A stretch of 64,000 nucleotides of DNA from Sulfurimonadaceae bacterium (GCA_041571435.1 JBFFUI010000008.1:1-64000); one strand, 5' to 3'. Shown: positions 12,986 to 30,641, counted from the stretch's first letter. The notes: generated by a model from the sequence alone, not told the origin. Made by a program: numbers and translations.

Positions 12986-13876
12986 ATGCGTATATTAATT
13001 ATTGAAAATGAGATCTATTTGGCACAGAGTATCGCTGCAAAACTGAGCGAACTGGGTCACACTTGCGACATGAGTTCATCGACGCAAGACGCACTTAAGC
13101 GTATCCCTTACGATGTCATTCTCCTTTCAACAAACATCAATGACCAGGACATCTACCCTGTCATCGATGCCTATAAAGATGCCGTTGTCATATTGATGGT
13201 CTCTTACATCTCCAATGACACTGTCTCGAAGCCGTTAAGTGCGGGTGCCAAAGATTACATCTTGAAGCCGTTTATGATCGAAGAGCTTATCCGCAAGATC
13301 GAACATTTCCAGGACTATGAGCGCCTTAAACGCCAGAATGCCACCTACCAGCGTTATCTAAAGCATGTTTTCAACGGCATCAACATTGACGAAAACCTTG
13401 AAGATATTGAGGTCCCTATCTTTATCTCCAGCAACTTTCAAAAATACACCGATGCTTTTGCTTTCTCCTACGCTGAGATCCACAATAAGACTCTCCATTT
13501 CGTCTCACTGGCGAACAGCGACGCCTTCAGTGAGATCGAAAAACTTTCTGCAAGCACTTTGATCTACGCCAATGATTTTCAAGCCGTCAAAAAAGCGGAT
13601 AAAAAAGCATTTTTTGAGCTGATCGAAGGGCGCGAAGCGATCATTTCAAGTACCGACAGTATCGATGAGGATATGGATTACACTGTAGTTGAGATAAAAA
13701 GTGACAACAACGTCTTTGAACAGGGCGATATTCTCCCTATCGAAGACTATGTCAAATATATTGTGTTAAATTATCAACACAAGTTCCCTGATACTGAGCT
13801 CTCCAAGAAGCTAGGGATATCTCGTAAAAGTCTCTGGGAGAAAAGAAAAAAATATGGCATCATCAAGAAAAAATAA
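12986..13876 (+). CDS. cemR: Atypical response regulator, HP1021/Cj1608 (CemR) orthologue
   Basis: Receiver domain with Ser at the phospho-Asp position (DVILLSTNI) and a C-terminal Fis-type HTH (ELSKKLGISRKSLWEK). Lies directly after ispDF, as HP1021 and Cj1608 do. Confidence 0.85.
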   Translation: MRILIIENEIYLAQSIAAKLSELGHTCDMSSSTQDALKRIPYDVILLSTNINDQDIYPVIDAYKDAVVILMVSYISNDTVSKPLSAGAKDYILKPFMIEELIRKIEHFQDYERLKRQNATYQRYLKHVFNGINIDENLEDIEVPIFISSNFQKYTDAFAFSYAEIHNKTLHFVSLANSDAFSEIEKLSASTLIYANDFQAVKKADKKAFFELIEGREAIISSTDSIDEDMDYTVVEIKSDNNVFEQGDILPIEDYVKYIVLNYQHKFPDTELSKKLGISRKSLWEKRKKYGIIKKK

Positions 13877-15044
13877 CACCCTCTATATTGATCAGGAAGC
13901 CCTCTCCGCACTTGCTTTATTAAAAGCGGGTCTGCTCTACCCCGTCACCTCCCTAATGAACAAAAAGCAGACGATGGACGTCCTGGAGACAGGCACGTAC
14001 AACAAGAAGATATTCCCTTTCCCTCTCATCCTGGCACCAAGCGGCAAGATAAACGAAGAGGTTCTAGCCGAGGCTGAGACCGGTGACAGACTCACCCTTG
14101 TCTCTGAAGATGTGGAGGTCGGCCACCTTATCGTCGAAGAGGTCTTTGAGATCAACCCGAAAGAGCGTGTCCGCCAGATCTACGGAACAGACAACCTTGA
14201 ACATCCCGGTGTCAAAGCGACCTATTCGAGGCTGGGTAATACGGCCGTTAGCGGTGATTTCGAGATCGACCTTTCGACGATAACGCAGCGCAAAAAAGAT
14301 ATCGAAACAGCCAAACAGCGTATAGGCGCACAGCATGTCACCGCTATTATGATGGGGGCCAACCCTCTGCACCGTGCACATGAACGACTTATCCGTCAGG
14401 CTTTGGATAAAACTGACCTTGTTGTCATCTTTTTACTAAAGCCCTTTAACAGTACCGATCTGCAGTTTGATCTGCGCAGCGAAACACTGACCTATTTTGT
14501 GCAGAACTTTTTACCGACAAACCGCGTTATCGTCGTACCATTGGAGAACAGCTACATCTTTGCCGGCTATAACGAAGTGATCATCGATTCTATTGTTGCC
14601 AAAAACTTTGGGTGCAATCGCTTGACAATCGGTCAGAACCATGCCGGTGTCGGTATGTACTATGATCAGAATACAAACAAATCGATCATTGACAAATTGA
14701 CAGGACTCGACATTGAAGTCGATATCGCTTCTGAATATGTCTACTGCAATGTCTGCAAGACACTTGTCAGTACCAAAACCTGCCCGCATGGTCAGCACCA
14801 CCATATCTCATATCATTCAGACTCTATCCTTGAACTCATCAAACTGGGTCTCTTGCCACCTGCGGTCTTGATGCGAAAAGAGATCGCAGCCATCATACTG
14901 TCACATCTCTTTCCGGATCGTTTTAAAAACCTTGAGAAGCTCTACTACGACATCATGCCGGTAACCGGTCTACTCGAAGAGCATACCGAGAAAGATTTTT
15001 ATATAGAGTTGATGAAGCTCTATCAGACCACCTCTCTAACGTAA
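13854..15044 (+). CDS. Sulfate adenylyltransferase-like protein (Cj1609-like, degenerate active site)
   Basis: ATP-sulfurylase layout with NPLHRAHE, GQNHAGVG and the Zn motif CNVC...CPH; the canonical QTRN and GRDHAG motifs are altered. Confidence 0.8.
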   Translation: MASSRKNNTLYIDQEALSALALLKAGLLYPVTSLMNKKQTMDVLETGTYNKKIFPFPLILAPSGKINEEVLAEAETGDRLTLVSEDVEVGHLIVEEVFEINPKERVRQIYGTDNLEHPGVKATYSRLGNTAVSGDFEIDLSTITQRKKDIETAKQRIGAQHVTAIMMGANPLHRAHERLIRQALDKTDLVVIFLLKPFNSTDLQFDLRSETLTYFVQNFLPTNRVIVVPLENSYIFAGYNEVIIDSIVAKNFGCNRLTIGQNHAGVGMYYDQNTNKSIIDKLTGLDIEVDIASEYVYCNVCKTLVSTKTCPHGQHHHISYHSDSILELIKLGLLPPAVLMRKEIAAIILSHLFPDRFKNLEKLYYDIMPVTGLLEEHTEKDFYIELMKLYQTTSLT

Positions 15045-15108
15045 TTGCCGTCAAGAGAGCAGAAGCTGATTTTCACATAGTGAACTGCTTGCACCATAAA
15101 GGACAATA

Positions 15109-15624
15109 ATGAATTGGTTTTTTCTCACTGTATTTTACAGCGGTCTTGCACCTAAAGCTCCGGGAACCGTAGGGACCATAGTCGCACTGCCTATAGGGGT
15201 AGTGATCTTGGCCTACTTAGGTCCGCAGACACTTTTTTTAGCGGCATTGCTGTTGACGCTCGCCGGCGTTAAAGCGGTCAACAAGTATCAGGAGAGCTCA
15301 AATACACACGATGACGGACGTATCGTAATCGATGAGCTGGTCGGAATGTGGTTGGCACTCTCTATAGCGCCGGGTATCTATACACCGTTGGACGAACTGC
15401 TTGTACTTGAAAACGGTATGCTGATCCAAATCGTTTTAAGTTTTGGCCTATTTCGCTATTTTGACATCAAAAAGCCCTCTATCATCGGCCGTATAGACCG
15501 TGAAGCACCGGGCGGCTACGGCGTAATGTTCGACGATGTCCTAGCAGGTATCGCAGCAGGTATACTAACGGCTATTATTTGGCAAGGTATTTTGGTCTCA
15601 GGCGTGATCGAGTATCTCAAATAA
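15109..15624 (+). CDS. pgpA: Phosphatidylglycerophosphatase A
   Basis: APKAPGT.GT, IVIDELVG, FRYFDI.KP and GVMFDDVLAG motifs. Confidence 0.95.
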   Translation: MNWFFLTVFYSGLAPKAPGTVGTIVALPIGVVILAYLGPQTLFLAALLLTLAGVKAVNKYQESSNTHDDGRIVIDELVGMWLALSIAPGIYTPLDELLVLENGMLIQIVLSFGLFRYFDIKKPSIIGRIDREAPGGYGVMFDDVLAGIAAGILTAIIWQGILVSGVIEYLK

Positions 15625-15661: not shown

Positions 15662-16996
15662 TTAGTTGGCCGCGTTTCCGGCCACGTTGAGCGGATCCCA
15701 TGTTTTGGAGATCGGCGGGGCATAGCAAAAGTCCATCATCCCAAGCTCTTCCGTCGTCATCTTCGCTTTTATCGCCATAGCAATGACATCGATACGGAGT
15801 GCCGCACCTTTTTTGCCCAGGATCTCGCCCCCTACTATCACTCTGCTCTCTGCTTCATAGACAAGTTTGATGTAGATGTCTTGTTGATTCTTGTAGAACG
15901 CTGACTGATCTTTATCTTTGACAAAAACAGTCTTGCATGCCAGCCCCATCTTGGTGGCATCACTCTCATTGATCCCGGTAATCGCTGCTTCCAAATCCAT
16001 CACTTTAACACAGGCTGAGCCCAATGAGCCTGGGTACCATGCATGACCGCCGGCCATGTTCTCTCCCGCAACACGTCCGAGTTTGTTCGCACCGGTAGCC
16101 AGAGGAATGTAGACATCATCTTTTTTGACAATATGCGGTACAGTGGCACAATCGCCTGCGGCATAGACATCTTTTAGAGTTGTCTCGGCTCTCCCGTTAA
16201 TGACAATAGCACCGTTTTCCAAGGTCTTGATACCCGTGTTTAAGACAAACTCCGTATTGGGTTTAAAGCCGGTAGCAATAACGACCAAGTCTGTTTCATA
16301 ATTGTTTTTATCCGTCACGACACGCTGCACTGTTGTCTCACCTTCAAAACCTTTTACACCTTCATTCAAGACCAGTTCAACGTCGTGTCCAAGCAACTCT
16401 TCATGCATCATATCCGTTATGCGTTCATCAAATATACGGTTGAAGACACGCGGCCCCCTTTGGATCAAACGCACCTTTTTACCCAGGTTTTTCATCGCTT
16501 CGACCACTTCGATCCCGATAAAACCGCCGCCGATAATAGTGACATCTTTTACCGTATCACTCTGTACAAGCGCTTTGAGTCTTTTACCGTCATCCAACTT
16601 GGTCAAGGTAAAAATATTTTCCAATCCTATATTATCAAAAGGCGGTTTAATGACATTTGCCCCTGTTGCGATCATCAATTTGTCGTAGTGGTGTGTCGTC
16701 ACATTTGAACTGCGCAAATCTTTGACCTGCACCGTTTTATCGTCTGCTGATACCGAGAGGACCTGATGTGCTGTCTGTACATCGATACCCGCATCACGCA
16801 TCTGTTCAACCGATCGCGCCAACATGGTATGTTCATCCTGAAAAAAATCACCTACATAATAGGGAAGACCGCAAGCCCCGAAAGAGACGATCTCACCCAT
16901 CTCATAGACTGTTATCTCAGCATCTTTTGCAAATCGTCTCGCTTTTGCCGCTGCACTCATCCCTGCGGCGATACCGCCAACAATAATAATTTTCAT
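15662..16996 (-). CDS. cdr: CoA-disulfide reductase / NADH oxidase family flavoprotein (no rhodanese domain)
   Basis: GGIAAGMSAA FAD motif, redox Cys in SFGACGLPY, GGGFIG NADH motif, YIPLAT and C-terminal YAPP. Confidence 0.85.
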   Translation of the reverse strand: MKIIIVGGIAAGMSAAAKARRFAKDAEITVYEMGEIVSFGACGLPYYVGDFFQDEHTMLARSVEQMRDAGIDVQTAHQVLSVSADDKTVQVKDLRSSNVTTHHYDKLMIATGANVIKPPFDNIGLENIFTLTKLDDGKRLKALVQSDTVKDVTIIGGGFIGIEVVEAMKNLGKKVRLIQRGPRVFNRIFDERITDMMHEELLGHDVELVLNEGVKGFEGETTVQRVVTDKNNYETDLVVIATGFKPNTEFVLNTGIKTLENGAIVINGRAETTLKDVYAAGDCATVPHIVKKDDVYIPLATGANKLGRVAGENMAGGHAWYPGSLGSACVKVMDLEAAITGINESDATKMGLACKTVFVKDKDQSAFYKNQQDIYIKLVYEAESRVIVGGEILGKKGAALRIDVIAMAIKAKMTTEELGMMDFCYAPPISKTWDPLNVAGNAAN

Positions 16997-17183: not shown

Positions 17184-17438
17184 TTAGAGATTAAGCTTCC
17201 AGAAGTCGTTGAGTTCCGAACGCAAGCGTTCAAGAACCTGTTCACGTGTTTCGGTGTTGTCAAAAGCAAGCATTTTAGCCAATTCAGATGCACTGAGGCG
17301 CTCTGTATAATGCTTTTCGACGTACTTCATCGCTTTTGCATTGAACTTTTTGGCGATCGAAAGTGATAGTTCTTTGTCAAATGCGATGGTATCTGGGTGT
17401 TCATTGTTGATTAATACTAAATATCCAATAGGTCTCAT
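17184..17438 (-). CDS. Hypothetical 84-aa protein with an AraC-HTH-like segment
   Basis: ATG ORF with its own TAAGAT -10-like site upstream. AMKYVEKHYTERLSASELAKML resembles the first helices of AraC DNA-binding domains. Confidence 0.55.
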   Translation of the reverse strand: MRPIGYLVLINNEHPDTIAFDKELSLSIAKKFNAKAMKYVEKHYTERLSASELAKMLAFDNTETREQVLERLRSELNDFWKLNL

Positions 17439-17584: not shown

Positions 17585-18097
17585 TCAGATCATCATCGGA
17601 TCAAAAGTCGGCTCGATCTCTTCGTAGTCTGCAACAATCTGGTCAAACATTTTCTGTGTCTTTTTGGCCTTCGCAATCTGGGCGTCAAAAATCTTTCTCG
17701 ATGACGGGAACGCGTCAGCTAGTTCCGTATAGATCATTATACGCCCGTTAAGGTGCTTGTTGAATTCTGTAAATGCTTTACTGAGAAATTCACGTTTTGT
17801 CGTATGACGGAAAAGCGCTTTGAGCATCTTGTCGCGCTCTTTAATAGGGATCGACTCGTCGATGCCGTCAGCAACACGTTTAAGATCGATACGTGAAAGA
17901 TAGACACCGCTCTGACTCGGTGCAAGCAGCTTCTCCTGCAGTTCATCTACAAAAGCCGGATACGGCTCTTCATCGACTGCATCACCACGGTCCGGGTTCT
18001 CTTCAGTGTCACAGCTTCCGTCTTCACTGATCTCACATTTGTCGCGTACAAACTTGTCAAATTCTGCTCTTAGTTCGTCCATGTTGCCATTGATCAT
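17585..18097 (-). CDS. Hypothetical acidic helical protein, last gene of the psr-like operon
   Basis: AAGGA RBS, 12-nt gap to the upstream gene, and coding-like composition. Confidence 0.75.
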   Translation of the reverse strand: MINGNMDELRAEFDKFVRDKCEISEDGSCDTEENPDRGDAVDEEPYPAFVDELQEKLLAPSQSGVYLSRIDLKRVADGIDESIPIKERDKMLKALFRHTTKREFLSKAFTEFNKHLNGRIMIYTELADAFPSSRKIFDAQIAKAKKTQKMFDQIVADYEEIEPTFDPMMI

Positions 18098-18109: not shown

Positions 18110-18868
18110 CTAATTATTTTTTATAAAATTGTAAGCGTTTTTTGTCAAACGCTCCAGTTGTGCCTCATAGCCTATATATTCGACATCGAGTTCATTCGCA
18201 CGCTGACGAAGTGCAGAGATCTGCTTCGCATTTTTAAGGTCAATACAAATTGGCGGCAGCTTTGCCACCTTTGCCAATGAGCTGATCGTCGAGGCGTCAA
18301 TAACAGCGTCATAGTCACTCAGATCGCATGCATCTGTCAAACGGTTGATATCGATCGATACACTCTCATTCATGGCCATCAATGACTCGACATATTCATG
18401 ATAATAGAAAAGAGTATGCTCTCTCTGTGTCAATGCTATCGCCTTTGCCAATGCCCCTGCACCGATTACAGCGATCTTTCTCGCCTGTTTTTCATCAAGC
18501 AGTTCAAAAAGAGATTGTATCGCAATAAAATCGCCGATAAGCTTTTTATCTTTCACTAAAACCACATCACATGCGCCGCACGCTTTGGAAAGTTCACTTT
18601 GAATGTCTACGATCTCAGCGGCATCTTTTTGATACTCGGCGCCGATGAAAGCACCGCTTAACTGAGCATCACGCATGTTGGAGAGTGTAAAGTAGAAATC
18701 GTCTTCGCGAATGTTCATCGGGATCATCATCGCATCATCACCCGCAGCTTTGAAAAGACGGTTTACACTCACGGACAGACGGTTTTGCTGCGCCTCTTCG
18801 GCAATAAAACCGAACAGTTTGGTCTGACGGCCGATCTGGTTGGATTCGTTCATACTGTCAACACTCAT
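18110..18868 (-). CDS. Shikimate dehydrogenase (AroE)-fold protein with degenerate catalytic motifs
   Basis: TKLFGFI start and GAGALAKAI Rossmann motif are kept. HSxSP, NVTxPxK, GAVNT and NTD are replaced. AGGAG RBS abuts the ferredoxin stop. Confidence 0.75.
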   Translation of the reverse strand: MSVDSMNESNQIGRQTKLFGFIAEEAQQNRLSVSVNRLFKAAGDDAMMIPMNIREDDFYFTLSNMRDAQLSGAFIGAEYQKDAAEIVDIQSELSKACGACDVVLVKDKKLIGDFIAIQSLFELLDEKQARKIAVIGAGALAKAIALTQREHTLFYYHEYVESLMAMNESVSIDINRLTDACDLSDYDAVIDASTISSLAKVAKLPPICIDLKNAKQISALRQRANELDVEYIGYEAQLERLTKNAYNFIKNN

Positions 18869-18877
18869 ACCATCTCC

Positions 18878-19987
18878 TTACATATCATCTGAAATACCCC
18901 AAAGCTCTCGTGCCTCTTCTTCTTCACATTGGCACTGATAACACATCTTTGCACCGGCCAATGAGGTAAACAGACGTCCACACTCATTGCAGTTCTTTAC
19001 ATCAAACGTGACAAGATTCTGGACTTGCGGCTCAAAAAACTCTTTTATATTATACGCGTTGGAACGTGTCAGAGCATCCGTTTCGCACACATCATGGCAG
19101 ACATGGCACTTAATGCATAAAAATGGATCGAAATCGATCTTTGAATTACGGACGTTCGAGGTCAACGCACCCGTCGGACAGACACGGTAACACATCTGAC
19201 ATGCCGTACACTTTTCCAAGTCAAAAAGTTTTTGTGACGTAAAACTCAGTTCTGTCGCATCAACCACGTGATAGGTCGACGGTTTCTCTGCACGTTTCAG
19301 AGCGGTAAAGAGCAGTTTACGTCTGTCCGGAATACCTTTCTGTTTTAACTGTGCGATCTTATCGTTTGTGATGGTATGTTCAACCAGCTCGTCGGTCGCT
19401 ATCTCAACCTCACGGTCAAACTTCTGTTTTGCCGTTGCCGCATTTTTGAGTGTAAAAGCTCTGAAAAAGTCACGTCGTTCGCCTTCAGGTACGTCAGTCA
19501 TCTCCTCAGGCGTATACGCTCTGTTTTCCAGTCTGACAGCAGCACTGCTCTCCATAGCCTCGAGCACATAATTCGCCTCTTCGGCTGTTGATTCGATCTG
19601 CCCTCTGCAGGTGTGGGCGATATCACAGTTCTCACAATGTCCCATATCAAATGTTACGCCATTTTTTAACGAAGCCAGTGCGATGACATGCTCAACATTC
19701 AAAACAGAGATACACGGAACATTTTTGCGGCATGAGATCAGCGACTCTTCGCTTGAAGCGAATTCGAAAAAGAACTCTGTCAAACTGAAGTCATCTAGCG
19801 TTAATGCTTCGGAGGGACAGACACCTGCACATCCGCCGCAAGCAACGCATTTAGAAAAGTTTATCGCTGGTAGCCCGTCATTTATAACAATAGCATTGGT
19901 CGGACAGATGCGCTCACATTTATCACACTCGCTGAACTTGGCGAGAGAACGGATACAGGCAGACGTATTAAGAGCGATCGCTGCCAT
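18878..19987 (-). CDS. Polyferredoxin (multiple 4Fe-4S) accessory protein, PsrE-like
   Basis: Four ferredoxin-type Cys motifs (e.g. CVACGGCAGVCP, CTACQMCYRVCP, CIKCHVCHDVC), extra central Cys residues and a C-terminal CxxC...CxxC. Confidence 0.85.
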   Translation of the reverse strand: MAAIALNTSACIRSLAKFSECDKCERICPTNAIVINDGLPAINFSKCVACGGCAGVCPSEALTLDDFSLTEFFFEFASSEESLISCRKNVPCISVLNVEHVIALASLKNGVTFDMGHCENCDIAHTCRGQIESTAEEANYVLEAMESSAAVRLENRAYTPEEMTDVPEGERRDFFRAFTLKNAATAKQKFDREVEIATDELVEHTITNDKIAQLKQKGIPDRRKLLFTALKRAEKPSTYHVVDATELSFTSQKLFDLEKCTACQMCYRVCPTGALTSNVRNSKIDFDPFLCIKCHVCHDVCETDALTRSNAYNIKEFFEPQVQNLVTFDVKNCNECGRLFTSLAGAKMCYQCQCEEEEARELWGISDDM

Positions 19988-20616
19988 TATTCCGTAGCGA
20001 GGCTTTCATTGATTAGTTCGTTGTCGGAAAGCATAAACTCAAGCGCCATCTCAGCAGCATCATAATAGAGCGGTGTACGCGCTTCATACTTCATATTGAT
20101 CAGGTAGAGTGGTGCCCACTGCAGGAGATGTTTGTTCAAGAACTCGCTTTGCGCTTGCAAAAGGTGTTCAACCGCATTGGTATCACCCTCTTCCATCGCT
20201 TTCATCTGCGCTTCGCACAGATGATGCATAAACTCAAGTTCAACACCGATGTGGTCACTTGAAACAACACGTGCGATCTCATAGTCGACGATAAAGTCGT
20301 AGGCGCTGTACATGTCTGTTACCGGGTTAGCCCCGCCTGTTTCGATCTTTTGGTCGTCACGCGTGTAAAATGTCTCATAAGGGACAAGGTGCAGGACTGA
20401 AAGGTTCACAAAGTCTGGATTCAAATGTTCGCCCAAGAGCGCACTGTTTTGAAGAGTACTTAGTGGTTCCCACTTCTTTAGGTTTGGAAAAAACTCTAAG
20501 ATCTGATCGTCATTTTTGATCGTCGTCAGCATCTCGTCATCGAGCTCTTGCATAAGTATTCTTGAAAGTAGTGCATATATATTACTGCGTGCTTGTGTCT
20601 GTTCCATGCGTATCAA
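19987..20616 (-). CDS. TorD/DmsD-family redox-enzyme maturation chaperone, PsrD-like
   Basis: PYETFY, DHIGVELEFM and FLNKHLLQW motifs. Alternative start at ATG 20607. Confidence 0.9.
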   Translation of the reverse strand: MIRMEQTQARSNIYALLSRILMQELDDEMLTTIKNDDQILEFFPNLKKWEPLSTLQNSALLGEHLNPDFVNLSVLHLVPYETFYTRDDQKIETGGANPVTDMYSAYDFIVDYEIARVVSSDHIGVELEFMHHLCEAQMKAMEEGDTNAVEHLLQAQSEFLNKHLLQWAPLYLINMKYEARTPLYYDAAEMALEFMLSDNELINESLATE

Positions 20617-20681: not shown

Positions 20682-23600
20682 TTAGTCTTTGATCTCAACC
20701 GCGTAGGCTTTCTCTGAAAGAGCAACCCAAGGACGCTTGATATGACGCGGACGACGCCATTTGTTCGCTGTATTAAGAGGACGAGTAAGCTCATCTCTCC
20801 ACGCCTGGTATGTTTTGAAGTTATTTTCATAGTTGACATAGATGTCACCGATGTTGTCACCCGGTTGAGCAGGTTCCAAAATAACTTTCTGGTGCCAACA
20901 GTGCATACCCGAGATCGGATCCGGGTGCGTCGGTGCCACAGCATTTTGCCATGAACCAGAAAGACCGTCCCACCAGATGTTGTCACTGTCTTTGTTATAG
21001 GCAGCAAAACGCTTAGTATGGAAAGGTTTAATGCCTTCTACATAACGCATAAGACCTTTTTTACCGTCCATGACCATCTCGGCAGTCGGAACACCGAAGC
21101 TGTTCATACCTGCAGTACCGTCGTAATCTTCGATCATGATCTCTTGACCGATGCGACCTGCAGCTGCAGGGCTGTCTGCCATAAACTTAGGATCGTTCAT
21201 GTTACGCGGTACCGGCTGACCGTCAACTTTACCGTCTGTTACACCGTTAGGAATCGTTACAGAGTTTTTAAGTTTCCAGCGTCCACCATGGTGTGAACAT
21301 GCCAGTGTACCAGGAAGAACACCTTCAGTCGGTACGGCCATCGCTACGAAGTAACCGCTTTCAAGACCTGAAACCGTGTCAACGATACGGACACGGATCG
21401 CATCACCACGCTTGAAGCCTTGACGCTTCGCATCCGGAGTTGAGATCCAGATCGGGTCATGGTTTTGCGAGATCTCCATAAGGTGCTTAGAGTTCGCAGA
21501 ACGCGTGTGAATGTTGTATGGAAGACGGAATACTGTGTTCAATGCATACGAGTTCTCTTCAGTCATATACATATGGTTAACGTGAGAGACAATGTGAACC
21601 ATCTCCTCTTTCTCTTTCTCGTTACGAGGGTAGAAAGGAATCGCATACTCCGGCCATTTCCACTCGTCAGATGCGAACCACTCTGAGAAGAAGTCAAGTT
21701 TTTTGTCAAGTGTCGCAAAACCTTCCATCTTAACACCGTCGATCTCGATACCAATAGGTTTTTTACCATCATCGTATTTCCATGCGTCGCTGCCATGTGC
21801 TTTTGTTGTCATGACACCCGTACGCTTATCGATCTCGACATGATGTTTATTATATTTGTGACCGTGTGCGATGTAGTTTTCACCATCTTCTTTGATCACA
21901 CGCTCTTGTGCCGAATAGATATTGTTCTCTTCCATCCATGCACCGTGATCTCTCATGTACTCGTATACTGGGTACTCAGAGTCTTTGTAACGCGGGTCTG
22001 AAGTCGCTGTAGACTTCAGGTTCGGCAAGTTGTCACCGAACGCAGCATCGTACCATTCAGAGATCGTAACCGGTTTGCCTGGGTTCTTTTTAGACTCCCA
22101 CATTTTCTTGATACCAAGAGAGCCATCCGGATCGATGTAGTTAACACCCATGTCGAACCAGAACTCATTCTCTTCCCAAACTTCACCAAGACCAGCTTTG
22201 ATGTGTGCTTCAAGTGTTGCACGGTTAGGGTTTTTAGGTTTCCAACCTGCTTTCTCAAGCGCAACACGCATAACCGGCTGACGGAATGATGTCCAACGTG
22301 CCGGCATCGTCGCTTCAGAGTGCTGATCGTGACGCTCGCCGGCAAGACCAACTGGAAGTACGTAATCAACATGCCAGTTTGTTTCAGACCATACAGGAGA
22401 AAGGTTAAAGGTAAGTTCCATTTTGGACTCGTCTTTAAGCACTTCCAACCAACGGAAGCCGTCTGGGTTGATCCATACCGGGTTGTACATACGTGGGATC
22501 CAGACAGCCAGTTTCTGTGGAACGTTGAGTCCTTTTTTGATCCATTTGTCCTGCCACTCAGTATCGGTTAGAAGGTGTGGCAGAAGGTATGACATCTCAT
22601 ACGTAGAGAGAGGCCATTCAGGCGGCCAAGAAAGTTCATTCCAGACATCGACTTTAGGAACGTTTGCACCGCCCTTACCTTGACCGACAGTCGCAGCACC
22701 ACCCTTACCGGCAACAGAAATAACGTGCCAGTGGTGGAAGAATGTACCACCTTTAGGACCGATCGCACCGCGTAGACCAAGTGCAAGGTAACCTGTACGA
22801 CCTGAGACCCAACCACCACGGTTACCCGCAGCTGTTGCACGCCAGAAGTATGACGCGATAGAGGTGTCAGCCCAGAGGAACATGTCGTATAGTTTCTCTA
22901 GTTTGTACGCCGGTACATGCGACTCTTTAACTGCATAGTCAAGTGTATATGGTGCATAAATCTCTTTTAGCATTTCCATGTACGACTCAAAACTGCCATC
23001 TTTCGGAAGTGCAGAGATATACCCTTTTTTAACCATGAAGTTCAGATAATCTTTGTTATCCATCATCACTTCCCAGTTAAACCACTTCTTGACAAATGCT
23101 TTATTGACCTTGTCTTCTTGAAGCATACGCTGTACAAGATAGAGGTAGATTGTCGGTTCTGTACCTGGCCATGCTGCGATCCAAAGGTCTGCCATACCGG
23201 CAGAGTTAGACATACGCGGATCCATAACAACAAGTTTTGCACCTTTTTTACGTGCGTCAGCAATGTGACCTGCAGCCTGCTGGAAGTAGTGACCCGCATC
23301 GGCTGCGTGTGACGAGTTAAGGAAAACAAGTTTCGCGTTTGCCCAGTCCGGAGACGTACGGTCATCATTTGCCCACTGGATAGTCGGCGTACGACCACCT
23401 GAAGAACAGATGTTAGTGTGCGAGTTGAATGCATCCGTGTTCAGTGTTTCCCAGAATTTTCCGGTGAAACCGTTCTCGTTCGGACGACCGACGTGGAACA
23501 TAACTGATTTTTTAGAAAGCTCATCCCCAACACGTAGAGTGTCACCCATCTTCTTACCGATGGTTGTCATCGCTTCATCCCAAGTCGTACGGATCCATTT

Positions 23601-24101
23601 ACCTTCACCGCGCTTAGAGCCCGGAGCACGTTTGATCGGGAATGCTAGACGATCCGGATCATACATTTGAGACTGTGTCGCATAACCTTTAGCACAGTTA
23701 CGGCCACGAGAACCCGGGTGAAGCGGGTTACCCATATATTTTTTAACGGTAAAGGTCTTCTTATCGATCCATGCTGTCAGACCACAAGAGGCCTCACAGT
23801 TTGAACAGGCTGTCGGAACGATCGCGAAATCGTTGACATAGATACCATCTGGGTTCTCTTCGCTCTGTACACCGTGACGGCCGATACCACCACGTTTCCA
23901 GTCTTGGCCATCAAGCTCTTTAAAGTCTTCCCACTGATCCAACGGCGGATAGAATGATAGTGAATCAGGCGTGTTCGTAAATTTGCTTTCACTGACTGAT
24001 TCTGCAATGGCGTCAGTTGTGAAAACGCCCTTTGCAATTGCAGCGCCGGCAACAGTAAATGCCGCGCCTTTTAAAAATGTTCTTCTACTTTCTAAATACA
24101 T
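20682..24101 (-). CDS. psrA: Tat-exported Mo/W-bisPGD oxidoreductase catalytic subunit, polysulfide/tetrathionate reductase clade (PsrA/TtrA-like)
   Basis: Twin-arginine signal SRRTFLK, FS0 motif CSNCEASC...C, candidate Cys ligand in SHTNICSSG, and a C-terminal molydop-binding domain. The substrate is inferred, not shown. Confidence 0.8.
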   Translation of the reverse strand: MYLESRRTFLKGAAFTVAGAAIAKGVFTTDAIAESVSESKFTNTPDSLSFYPPLDQWEDFKELDGQDWKRGGIGRHGVQSEENPDGIYVNDFAIVPTACSNCEASCGLTAWIDKKTFTVKKYMGNPLHPGSRGRNCAKGYATQSQMYDPDRLAFPIKRAPGSKRGEGKWIRTTWDEAMTTIGKKMGDTLRVGDELSKKSVMFHVGRPNENGFTGKFWETLNTDAFNSHTNICSSGGRTPTIQWANDDRTSPDWANAKLVFLNSSHAADAGHYFQQAAGHIADARKKGAKLVVMDPRMSNSAGMADLWIAAWPGTEPTIYLYLVQRMLQEDKVNKAFVKKWFNWEVMMDNKDYLNFMVKKGYISALPKDGSFESYMEMLKEIYAPYTLDYAVKESHVPAYKLEKLYDMFLWADTSIASYFWRATAAGNRGGWVSGRTGYLALGLRGAIGPKGGTFFHHWHVISVAGKGGAATVGQGKGGANVPKVDVWNELSWPPEWPLSTYEMSYLLPHLLTDTEWQDKWIKKGLNVPQKLAVWIPRMYNPVWINPDGFRWLEVLKDESKMELTFNLSPVWSETNWHVDYVLPVGLAGERHDQHSEATMPARWTSFRQPVMRVALEKAGWKPKNPNRATLEAHIKAGLGEVWEENEFWFDMGVNYIDPDGSLGIKKMWESKKNPGKPVTISEWYDAAFGDNLPNLKSTATSDPRYKDSEYPVYEYMRDHGAWMEENNIYSAQERVIKEDGENYIAHGHKYNKHHVEIDKRTGVMTTKAHGSDAWKYDDGKKPIGIEIDGVKMEGFATLDKKLDFFSEWFASDEWKWPEYAIPFYPRNEKEKEEMVHIVSHVNHMYMTEENSYALNTVFRLPYNIHTRSANSKHLMEISQNHDPIWISTPDAKRQGFKRGDAIRVRIVDTVSGLESGYFVAMAVPTEGVLPGTLACSHHGGRWKLKNSVTIPNGVTDGKVDGQPVPRNMNDPKFMADSPAAAGRIGQEIMIEDYDGTAGMNSFGVPTAEMVMDGKKGLMRYVEGIKPFHTKRFAAYNKDSDNIWWDGLSGSWQNAVAPTHPDPISGMHCWHQKVILEPAQPGDNIGDIYVNYENNFKTYQAWRDELTRPLNTANKWRRPRHIKRPWVALSEKAYAVEIKD

Positions 24102-24113
24102 TGATATCCTCTC

Positions 24114-25022
24114 TTAACTCATAGGTAGTAGTTGTGGAATCATCAACCATACATGTTTGACAATCCATAGACCAGCTAACGCAAGGATAGCTGCTAATTT
24201 AAGAATGTTTTGGTTTTTGTTGACAATACTTAAGACCACTAGTACAAATGGAATGATGTAAGCAGTAACTTGACCGATCCAGAACATTGCCTGATACTCA
24301 CCACCATGTTTGATGTACTCAAGTACAGCTGCAACCTCTTCAGCTTTCATCGGTCCGAAAACCAACTCCGCCATATACATAATGAATGCCGCAAGTGCAC
24401 TGAACCCGAGGATGATGCTCAGGTCACGTTTCGCTTCTGATGACAGCTTGTTCATGAACGTGTCCATCAAAAGAACCGTAGCTGAACCCGAAAGCGTCGC
24501 TGCAAGTACCATCTGGGCCGACTCTGTCGGCATCTGCCATAGTTCACGTGCCGTTGCCTGTGCCATAAGACCTGCCGTATAAAGTGTTACAGGAATTGCA
24601 AGTACAGTTACCCATAGCAGTGTCTTGTCAAAGGCTGCATCGTCTTTTTTGATGAACGAAAGATAGGCAAGCAGGAACAATAGAGCGACAAACGCCGTCG
24701 CCATCCAAGCACCCACCGTAATCGCCGATGTAACATGCGGATAGAAGAAAATGTGCCACATTCTAAACGGCTGATGAAGGTCCGCCAGAGTGAACAACAG
24801 GAACAGGTGAATAAATACAATTGATACGACTGTAATCGGGAAACGGTAGCCGGCTGATTCATTCGGGTACTTTTTCAACAGGTAGAACAGCATAAAGATA
24901 ACACCTGTACCAATACTTTTAGCCCACATATTCATCGTAACCAGCCAAGGCCATACAATACCAGGAAGACCAACGTCCAATGTCACAACTGCATTAGTTG
25001 CTGCGATAGTTTCGTGTACCAT
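24114..25022 (-). CDS. psrC: NrfD/PsrC-family membrane anchor (quinol-interacting)
   Basis: About 8 TM helices, DLHQPFR.W, S.IT.GAW and RELW motifs. Confidence 0.9.
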   Translation of the reverse strand: MVHETIAATNAVVTLDVGLPGIVWPWLVTMNMWAKSIGTGVIFMLFYLLKKYPNESAGYRFPITVVSIVFIHLFLLFTLADLHQPFRMWHIFFYPHVTSAITVGAWMATAFVALLFLLAYLSFIKKDDAAFDKTLLWVTVLAIPVTLYTAGLMAQATARELWQMPTESAQMVLAATLSGSATVLLMDTFMNKLSSEAKRDLSIILGFSALAAFIMYMAELVFGPMKAEEVAAVLEYIKHGGEYQAMFWIGQVTAYIIPFVLVVLSIVNKNQNILKLAAILALAGLWIVKHVWLMIPQLLPMS

Positions 25023-25660
25023 TAGTGACCTCCTAGCGGCATTTTTGAAGTAATCTTGTTAAACAACGAGTGTCCTTCTACCCTGTGTGACGCAAGTGGG
25101 TTCAATGTAACGTTTCCGCCACCGACATAGTAGTGGTGCGGGTTCGTACCTTTTTCAGGTTTACGAACCTGAACATCACCTTGGTGCTGCATGATATACT
25201 TGGAGATGTTTGAAGTAGGGTCTTCAATATCACCGAAGATATTCGCTTCGACCGGACATGCGACAACACATGCAGGCATCATCGAAGAGGCAATACGGTG
25301 TGCACAGTATGTACATTTGTCGGCCGTCTGTGTTTCCGGATCGATATAGATCGCGCCATATGGACAAGCCATAACACAACCCGCACAACCGATACAACGT
25401 TCTTTGTCAATATTGACAATACCGTTTTCGATATAGTGAAGTGCACTGACCGGACAAATACGTTCACACGGTGCATTTTCACAGTGGTTACAACGAAGTG
25501 GTGTAAATGTACGTTTCGTTTCCGGGAACGTACCTACATCAACATACTTAACACGAAGACGCCATGTAGAAAGAGGAACTTCATTCTCAACCTTACATGC
25601 GATCTCACATCCCTTACAACCCATACACAGGTGTAAGTCAACGAGGAAACCTAATTTCAT
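25022..25660 (-). CDS. psrB: Four-cluster Fe-S subunit (NrfC/PsrB/TtrB type), no Tat signal
   Basis: CMGCKGCEIAC, CNHCENAPCERICP, CIGCAGCVMACP, KCTYC...PACVVACP and GTNP; AAGGAG RBS. Confidence 0.9.
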   Translation of the reverse strand: MKLGFLVDLHLCMGCKGCEIACKVENEVPLSTWRLRVKYVDVGTFPETKRTFTPLRCNHCENAPCERICPVSALHYIENGIVNIDKERCIGCAGCVMACPYGAIYIDPETQTADKCTYCAHRIASSMMPACVVACPVEANIFGDIEDPTSNISKYIMQHQGDVQVRKPEKGTNPHHYYVGGGNVTLNPLASHRVEGHSLFNKITSKMPLGGH

Positions 25661-29886: not shown

Positions 29887-30399
29887 CTATTTTTTTGTTT
29901 TTTTCAAGATCTCTTTGGCGATCGTCTCATAATCTTTGTCGCTGACATCGATGACAAGGTCGGCCACCGCCCGGTATTGCGGTTCGCGTTCATTGTAAAG
30001 CGCCTCTGCTTTGGCGATGTCCTGAAAGAGCGGTCGTTTTTTGAGTTTCTTCTCTGCATTCGGGTGGTCGATAATGCGGTGGTAGATGGTCTGAAACGGT
30101 GCATCAAGTAGTACTATAGTACCGACTTCATGGACCTTTGGAACTTTGAAAAAGCCGCCGCCTGTCGAGATGAGTGTGTTGTCAACACTCTGACGCAACC
30201 ACTGCCCTACACGCGCTTCCAGTGCACGGAAATACGGTTCACCCTCTTCTGCAAAGATCTTCTTGACCTTGCGGTTCTCCATGCTCTCGATGATGTCATC
30301 CGTGTCGATCGCTACCATGCCGCTCTGTCGCACGATCTCCCGTGCTACAGAGCCTTTGCCTACACCCATAAAGCCGATTAATACGATATTGTTTTTCAT
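29887..30399 (-). CDS. aroK: Shikimate kinase
   Basis: GFMGVGKG, DTD, GE.YFR, ISTGGG and RPL motifs. Start at ATG 30399. Confidence 0.95.
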   Translation of the reverse strand: MKNNIVLIGFMGVGKGSVAREIVRQSGMVAIDTDDIIESMENRKVKKIFAEEGEPYFRALEARVGQWLRQSVDNTLISTGGGFFKVPKVHEVGTIVLLDAPFQTIYHRIIDHPNAEKKLKKRPLFQDIAKAEALYNEREPQYRAVADLVIDVSDKDYETIAKEILKKTKK

Positions 30400-30641
30400 G
30401 GGCGTAGTGTAGCAGATAATCAACTATGAAGAGATAAAAAGGTTATCGTCACTACAAAAGAGACGATTATGCAAAGATCACTTTCAGATACATGAGAGCA
30501 GAAGGTGGTGCCAAGACTGCAGCCTACACAATAGCTATCCAACTGTTTTTATCATTTCACCTCCTTTTTTCCATGCTCTTTTATATTATTTTGGATTGTA
30601 GTAAAATAGTAGATGACAACCTCTAGACGAAGGTAAACACT

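Follow-up and report, generated by a model that had tools for sequence, protein, structure and literature searches.

What role could a protein with the fold of shikimate dehydrogenase (AroE) play in the operon of a respiratory molybdoenzyme? The question is raised by an ORF, here called AroE-like, on the minus strand of a 64,000-nucleotide stretch of DNA from a Sulfurimonadaceae bacterium (GCA_041571435.1, JBFFUI010000008.1:1-64000), which is referred to as the window. In minus-strand order, the genes around it encode a four-cluster FeS subunit, an NrfD-type membrane anchor, a molybdopterin (Mo) subunit, a TorD-like chaperone, a polyferredoxin, the AroE-like protein and a 170-aa protein (Table 1). 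A preliminary description, made from the sequence alone, had proposed that the AroE-like protein has abandoned shikimate chemistry for a service to its neighbours. We have followed this proposal through the fold, the active site, the conservation and the genomic distribution of the family.

An AroE fold below the curated cut-offs

The AroE-like ORF starts with ATG, with an AGGAG located 6 nt upstream. NCBIfam aroE models match it with E-values from 2e-12 to 1e-10, at 41-47 bits versus cut-offs of 200-252 (40.9 versus 200.2 for TIGR00507, and 46.7 versus 252 for the best-scoring aroE model), and the Pfam family Shikimate_dh_N (PF08501) gives 23.1 bits for a gathering score of 27. The protein is certainly, although distantly, homologous to shikimate dehydrogenase and stays below all curated cut-offs. 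Its best solved relative by sequence is the Aquifex AroE structure (PDB code: 2hk9), found by HMMER with an E-value of 2.6e-7.

The AlphaFold2 model calculated from 75 relatives has a mean pLDDT of 94.2. All matches listed in a Foldseek search of the PDB with this model are chains of the shikimate/quinate dehydrogenase family, with E-values of ~1e-15, TM values of 0.65-0.77 and identities of 14-20%. The two-domain AroE fold, an N-terminal substrate domain (N-domain) and a Rossmann domain, is present. The N-domain carries the motifs A-Q-Q-N-R (residues 26-30) and P-M-N-I-R-E-D-D (residues 50-57), followed by E78 and the pair C100-D101, and the Rossmann domain carries the nucleotide loop GAGALA (nt 18446-18463), E158 at the end of strand beta-2, E161 and D173-I-N-R176. 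No signal peptide is visible on the protein, which would be cytoplasmic. The Nitrate_red_del family (PF02613) was not found by Pfam in this ORF; the adjoining ORF (19987-20616) matches it.

Table 1. Features of the AroE-like gene and of the surrounding operon; positions are counted from the first nucleotide of the window.
Feature	Position	Strand	Length and basis
AroE-fold pseudoenzyme ORF	18110..18868	(-)	252 aa; ORF call, AlphaFold2 (AF2) and Foldseek
N-terminal (former shikimate-binding) domain	18485..18868	(-)	residues 1-128; conservation counts, N-domain-only homologues
CGAC (C97-G-A-C100)	18569..18580	(-)	CxxC in the AroE-like protein; read from sequence
Rossmann-type domain	18170..18484	(-)	residues 129-233; DSSP of model, column counts
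170-aa acidic all-helical orphan	17585..18097	(-)	170 aa; 12 nt downstream of the AroE-like gene; AF2 pLDDT 82.5
Polyferredoxin, cytoplasmic	18878..19987	(-)	369 aa; Pfam Fer4, 4 stretches, E 5.8e-21; two 2x[4Fe-4S] domains
TorD/NarJ-family maturation chaperone	19987..20616	(-)	209 aa; Pfam Nitrate_red_del E 2.7e-18
Mo (molybdopterin) subunit, Tat signal, Psr/Phs-like	20682..24101	(-)	1139 aa; Pfam Molybdopterin, Fe4S4, Molydop_binding
NrfD/PsrC-type membrane anchor	24114..25022	(-)	302 aa; Pfam NrfD E 1.4e-14
Four-cluster FeS subunit (PsrB-like)	25022..25660	(-)	212 aa; Pfam Fer4_11 E 5.2e-22

The shikimate dehydrogenase sites and the genuine aroE

The functional sites were compared using an HMMER alignment to the Aquifex AroE 2hk9 and MAFFT alignments with the AroE of the same genome. 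In both, HSxSP of the enzyme corresponds to QNRLS (residues 28-32), which replaces the substrate-binding Ser-x-Ser; NVTxPxK corresponds to FIGAEYQ (residues 74-80), with Q80 at the position of the catalytic lysine; and IGAVN, within AxxIGAVN, corresponds to CGACD (residues 97-101, nt 18566-18580), which replaces the substrate-binding asparagine of GAVNT. These three changes had been read by eye in the preliminary description and were recovered by the two alignment methods, as was the glycine-rich loop that it had reported as kept (GAGALA, residues 136-141). The catalytic aspartate, which it had likewise counted as lost, is a different case. The MAFFT alignment places F-I-A under the N-T-D motif, in agreement with a loss, whereas HMMER opens a 3-residue gap and pairs D113 with the catalytic aspartate. 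The column of D113 contains Asp in 42 and Glu in 12 of 75 relatives. Loss of the catalytic aspartate therefore depends on the alignment.

A canonical aroE is found on another contig, C11, of the same genome (G000:C11:26984-27760). Its 263-aa ORF reaches 212 bits with TIGR00507, above the cut-off of 200.2, and keeps HSRSP, NVTVPHK, NTD, GVVNT and GAGGTS; the AroE-like ORF, with 40.1 bits in the same genome search, is not the sole aroE-type copy. Among the 75 relatives of the AroE-like protein, only two have a lysine in the catalytic lysine column. Judged by these residues and by the separate aroE, the AroE-like protein is evidently not the shikimate enzyme of this genome, in agreement with the preliminary description. 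By operational definition it is a pseudoenzyme: a clear homologue of an enzyme family, with catalytic residues missing, that is yet conserved.

The same division is seen in a quick maximum-likelihood tree of 70 sequences, composed of the window protein, 16 representatives of its family, 14 remote representatives, the genome's own AroE, 2 proteins from the scanned loci and 36 other matches of 235-300 aa chosen from P0175-P0267. The 32 canonical dehydrogenases bearing the Lys/Asp pair, of which the AroE of this genome is one, group in a single clade (SH-aLRT 100, branch 1.14), and every dead-site protein falls on the opposite side of this unrooted tree. It should be mentioned that, for the remote-tier proteins (P0142-P0174), the link to the operon is provided by two loci, L092 and L093, whose proteins fall in their group in the tree.

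Conservation in the AroE-like family

A word-indexed search returned 676 proteins at E <= 0.001. Among the best 120 of these 676, all named relatives are Sulfurimonas, Sulfurimonadaceae, 'Helicobacteraceae' or Campylobacterota records; eleven JGI names read 'shikimate 5-dehydrogenase' and all 11 NCBI/nr names read 'hypothetical protein'. The expectation that automatic pipelines would label such genes aroE was thus correct for the JGI names and incorrect for those of NCBI/nr. We regard the IMG-style label as wrong for this family; it could distort pathway reconstructions for sulfur-oxidising Campylobacterota. An exhaustive search of 50% representatives gave 156 proteins at E <= 0.001, of which 18 reached E <= 1e-30, and an Atlas search with the homologue P0119 returned Campylobacterota 'hypothetical protein' clusters first and ordinary Shikimate_dh_N clusters after them.

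Conservation was counted in an alignment of 75 full-length members, hand-picked from the search lists with fragments excluded. N52, D57, G136 and E161 are invariant in all 75, and P50, I53, R54, D56, G72, E78, D101, D173, R176 and D187 are found in at least 90% of them. The new CxxC had been put forward as the functional novelty of the protein, on the understanding that it would be conserved in the family. The counts do not support this idea: the complete CxxC is present in 32/75 sequences, with a cysteine at the first position in 36/75 and at the second, C100, in 63/75. The pair formed by C100 and D101 is more frequent, at 61/75. The signature of the family is thus a rebuilt N-domain, with P-M-N-I-R-E-D-D, E78 and often C-D, and not the CxxC.

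The Rossmann domain shows a mixed pattern. Its mean pairwise identity is 0.44, versus 0.53 for the N-domain (61 closer rows). The GxG of the nucleotide loop is retained in 43/75 members, and its second glycine is replaced in the other 32, in variants that include GATPLA, GINHYA and GVNPYA. Since E161, D173, R176 and D187 are invariant or nearly so and the end of beta-2 is acidic in 72 of the 75 relatives, the domain appears to be under selection in two-domain members and may bind a nucleotide. Such binding is possible for the window protein, which keeps GAGALA and E158, and the conserved Rossmann residues may leave room for a catalytic or redox role in the two-domain members. NAD(P) binding as a core property, as first suggested for the protein, is not supported, in view of the variable loop and of the absence of the whole domain from about half of the carrier genomes described below.

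In one subgroup of 265-aa proteins (L046:9998-10795, P0106, P0119 and P0120) the C-terminus is extended by a conserved stretch whose last residues are HLEHDKSDM(K/R)F.

A four-gene cassette that can be separated from the structural genes

The locus scan, with one genome per species, found 160 relatives, from which 80 loci were kept; all are Sulfurimonas, Sulfuricurvum or Sulfurimonadaceae-type records. In these 80 loci the AroE-like reading frames are intact, with 40-93% identity to the window protein. Where the flanking sequence is sufficient, the AroE-like gene is accompanied by the polyferredoxin gene in 77/78 loci, by the TorD-like gene in 71/74 and by the gene of the 170-aa protein in 70/73. 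Exceptions were noted: the AroE-like genes L045:9998-10756 and L062:5884-6615 occur without the TorD-like and 170-aa genes, and L058:4501-5313, from a symbiont bin, stands alone with the polyferredoxin gene also missing, its upstream 398-aa ORF being unrelated.

The Mo subunit lies beside this cassette in just 10 of the 55 loci with enough flank. In the remaining loci the four-gene cassette is found by itself next to pgpA and the ATP sulfurylase gene, which are also its neighbours in the window. A Mo subunit of 80-84% identity is encoded elsewhere in the genome in all five genomes with a lone cassette that were picked by hand. The loci fetched around the Mo subunit gave a complementary picture, with the seven-gene order seen in 7/7 of them (seven genomes, six coded families); in one, L096, the sixth gene was assigned by ORF position and profile search rather than by tblastn. 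An eighth locus (G047), fetched around an AroE-like match far from the Mo gene, gave no tblastn match. Because the cassette is separable from the structural genes yet kept in the genome, a trans-acting biogenesis factor would fit better than a structural subunit. Maturation factors are expected as a trans-acting cassette beside a REMP chaperone, as in the TorD/NarJ, NapF, NapD and FdhD/E systems.

With regard to the other members of the cassette, the TorD-like ORF scores 57 bits with NCBIfam TorD, under the cut-off of 132. The polyferredoxin has extra cysteines, identified by eye, in its middle part (C86, C92, C118, C121 and C127) and in a C-terminal CxxC...CxxCxC. The 170-aa protein matches no Pfam or NCBIfam family. 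Its predicted fold gave nothing in a Foldseek search of the PDB at E <= 0.001, and in a VIA wide search (best Z 6.1) it gave generic helical hairpins only, with no convincing relative. Residues P60, G64, Y66, S68, D71, R88, M91 and Y123 are invariant in its 29 aligned homologues. A complex prediction for the AroE-like and 170-aa proteins, run without controls, gave a score of 0.01 and a mark of 0.32, which weighs in neither direction on whether the two bind.

Several features of the flanks were recorded alongside. The ATP sulfurylase gene and a 171-aa ORF occupy 13854-15624 on the plus strand; the latter is likely pgpA by position, with Pfam run on its counterparts in L016 and L046. Between pgpA and the cassette, at 15662-16996 on the minus strand, lies a gene for a 444-aa pyridine nucleotide-disulfide oxidoreductase with a dimerisation domain, CoA-disulfide-reductase-like by domain content; only L006, the closest locus, has it in this position. 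An 84-aa ORF just downstream of the operon (17184-17438, minus strand) matches no Pfam or NCBIfam family and is present, at 93-100% identity, in the seven closest loci only (L006-L011 and L013). A genuine shikimate kinase gene (29887-30423, minus strand; Pfam SKI E 5e-29) is located ~11 kb from the AroE-like gene and separated from it by unrelated genes; its presence could mislead context-based annotation.

The molybdoenzyme and its co-occurrence with the AroE-like gene

The best PDB match of the Mo subunit is Thermus PsrA (PDB code: 2vpw), with only residues 88-341 covered. A cysteine of the Mo subunit aligns with the PsrA residue that we take to be the cysteine ligand of Mo. The Mo subunit reaches no curated NCBIfam cut-off, the best model being PhsA with 124 bits versus 694, and the names of its public relatives are generic. 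Its sequence identity is 54-63% where it could be aligned whole in the fetched loci, and up to 90% in the nearest sampled genome.

Co-occurrence was counted in 301 sampled Campylobacterales genomes. The Mo subunit (E <= 1e-60) is present in 116 of them. A profile of both forms of the AroE-like protein finds operon-type matches at E <= 1e-13 in 112 genomes and canonical AroE proteins at E >= 1e-11, in ORFs of ~260-290 aa, so that the two groups separate cleanly. Both the AroE-like gene and the Mo subunit gene are found in 105 genomes, the AroE-like gene only in 7, the Mo subunit gene only in 11 and neither in 178; as these genomes are related and non-independent, the counts describe a pattern and are not a statistical test. 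All seven genomes with the AroE-like gene only are assemblies of at least 110 contigs, and the eleven with the Mo subunit only are without a strong AroE-like match. The suggestion that the protein serves the molybdoenzyme or the polyferredoxin is in line with these counts as well as with the gene adjacency.

A full-text search of the open-access literature gave no description of a molybdoenzyme operon with an AroE-like gene. In the parts covered of PMC12998232, PMC10045233, PMC4464133, PMC9948710 and PMC4584990, the molybdoenzyme is not identified.

Two-domain and N-domain-only forms

Comparison of the sixth operon gene among the fetched Mo-subunit loci reveals two forms of its product. Two-domain proteins of 234-280 aa are encoded in the coded families f4 and f19, whereas in f17, f6, f8 and two f1 genomes this slot of the operon encodes proteins of 117-159 aa that consist of the N-domain only. 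Weak Pfam Shikimate_dh_N matches were obtained for 5/7 of the AroE-like proteins from these loci. The Cys-Asp pair is kept in the short forms of f1, as well as in the f4 and f19 forms, and is absent from the three short forms examined in f17, f6 and f8. In MAFFT alignments the terminal helix of the short forms is paired with the interdomain helix, and not with the C-terminal helix, of the long form.

Short forms make up all strong profile matches in f5 (1), f6 (13), f8 (10), f17 (19) and f24 (3), and 9/24 of those in f1. A hand count gives ~55 short forms among the 112 carrier genomes, with the Rossmann domain missing in about half. The N-domain is the part present in every form of the AroE-like family, and the Rossmann domain is an optional module across the order. 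Split genes were also considered as an origin of the short forms and were rejected, there being no space for a second, Rossmann-encoding ORF between the polyferredoxin and 170-aa genes.

Proposed role and alternative explanations

The explanation that we favour, with some reserve, is that the AroE-like protein is a pseudoenzyme acting as a dedicated, non-catalytic accessory factor in the biogenesis of the Tat-exported, Psr/Phs-like molybdoenzyme, and that it acts through its remodelled N-domain. A descendant of shikimate dehydrogenase would have lost its shikimate chemistry and become an accessory factor of a quinone-linked molybdoenzyme that is widespread in Campylobacterales. It would be made together with the TorD-like chaperone, the polyferredoxin and the 170-aa helical protein, and its N-domain would bind a ligand or partner required during the loading of the apo-molybdoenzyme with cofactors and its retention for Tat export. 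The former shikimate pocket would have been rebuilt into a polar, largely acidic site formed by N52, R54, D56, D57 and E78, and by C100-D101 in many lineages. This pocket may be the working site; candidate ligands are a metal, a sulfur species, an intermediate of the cofactor or a segment of a protein. Instead of maturation, a role of the AroE-like protein in regulation or in the handling of substrate would also fit these observations.

We have also considered a thiol or metal relay, a narrowed form of the thiol or metal protein of the preliminary description: C100, located by D101 in the former pocket, would carry a persulfide or a metal ion and deliver it to the apo-enzyme, either to the Mo cofactor or to an FeS cluster, much as FdhD-type sulfurtransferases do. 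This relay would be a special case of the accessory factor. Sulfur handling is plausible for PsrA-like, Cys-ligated molybdoenzymes; the Mo subunit has a PsrA-like cysteine ligand, and C100 (63/75) and C-D (61/75) are common in the two-domain relatives and kept in the f1 short forms and the f4 and f19 forms. However, the CxxC occurs in only 32/75, C100 is replaced by V, I, Y or F in 12/75 two-domain relatives, the cysteine is absent from the three short forms of f17, f6 and f8 that occupy the same operon slot, and homology to known sulfurtransferases was not found. Such a relay is unlikely. Alternatively, the AroE-like scaffold could carry the molybdenum cofactor in its dinucleotide form (MGD or bis-MGD), or a precursor, and pass it on to the TorD-held apo-enzyme. 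The former NADP groove would then hold the GMP-pyrophosphate part, and the rebuilt pocket (N52, R54, D56/D57, E78 and C100-D101) the pterin-dithiolene-Mo end, with only the pterin-binding half retained in the short forms. We consider a carrier of this kind improbable.

Two further explanations were weighed. The two-domain form could be a neo-functionalised NAD(P)-dependent oxidoreductase, which would bind NAD(P)H and reduce or oxidise a new small substrate tied to the chemistry of the molybdoenzyme, other residues of the pocket having taken over from the Lys-Asp pair. The intact GAGALA of the window protein, the acidic end of beta-2 (72/75) and a Rossmann domain with conserved residues of its own are consistent with such an enzyme, and the closest structural neighbours include enzymes of altered substrate, e.g. 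5-ketofructose reductase (PDB code: 7col). However, the second glycine of the loop is replaced in 32/75 relatives, about half of the carrier genomes encode, in the unchanged gene slot, a protein that has no Rossmann domain, no general base is found at the catalytic positions, and the protein would be without a flavin or metal site for passing single electrons to the polyferredoxin. A new oxidoreductase is quite unlikely on these grounds. The loss of catalytic residues, together with domain loss in many lineages, could also be expected of a decaying, functionless remnant of a duplicated aroE. Intact frames at 40-93% identity over 80 loci, family-specific invariant residues, a fold predicted with high confidence, an operon position fixed across at least six coded families and the tight co-occurrence with the Mo subunit all speak against decay, which is already disfavoured and which we find hardly credible.

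An accessory factor acting through the N-domain would thus remain our preferred explanation. The present results link two unnamed things, a widespread uncharacterised molybdoenzyme and a four-gene accessory cassette. Two of the cassette proteins, the AroE-like and the 170-aa one, fall outside the maturation families described so far. Should the accessory function be correct, the known helpers of Tat-exported molybdoenzymes would gain a fold not seen among them before. The family would also provide a clean bacterial case of an oxidoreductase that has become a pseudoenzyme, in which naturally occurring two-domain and one-domain members reveal the half that matters.

Comparison with known systems

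Compared to AroE (EC 1.1.1.25; TIGR00507; PF08501 and PF01488), the AroE-like protein has the same two-domain fold and topology, homology over both domains and the glycine-rich loop at the same position. It differs from the enzyme by the absence of the catalytic lysine, the Ser-x-Ser and the asparagine, by a score of 41 bits versus a cut-off of 200, by the lack of ~11 residues from the loop that follows the VNTTS-type strand of the nucleotide domain and by the position of its family apart from the canonical enzymes in the tree. Its gene lies in a respiratory molybdoenzyme operon, and not with genes of aromatic amino-acid synthesis.

YdiB (1npd/1vi2), Ael1 (3pwz) and 5-ketofructose reductase (7col) are structural neighbours with similar scores, indicating that the scaffold tolerates new substrates. 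The classes represented by YdiB, Ael1, RifI, SdhL and 5-ketofructose reductase are enzymes that are not known to have lost either the Lys-Asp pair or the dinucleotide loop. In contrast, the AroE-like family keeps neither of these consistently and is often without the Rossmann domain.

The accessory proteins of Tat-exported molybdoenzymes, i.e. the TorD/DmsD/NarJ REMPs, NapD, NapF and FdhD/FdhE, have unrelated folds, and no member of those families is known to be AroE-like. The likeness lies in their genetic arrangement and cellular setting. They are encoded with or near the structural genes, have no visible signal peptide and can act in trans. For the AroE-like cassette, action in trans would match its placement, which in most Sulfurimonas loci is separate from that of the structural genes. 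Like the members of such accessory sets, the AroE-like gene is accompanied by genes for a TorD-like REMP and a NapF-like polyferredoxin.
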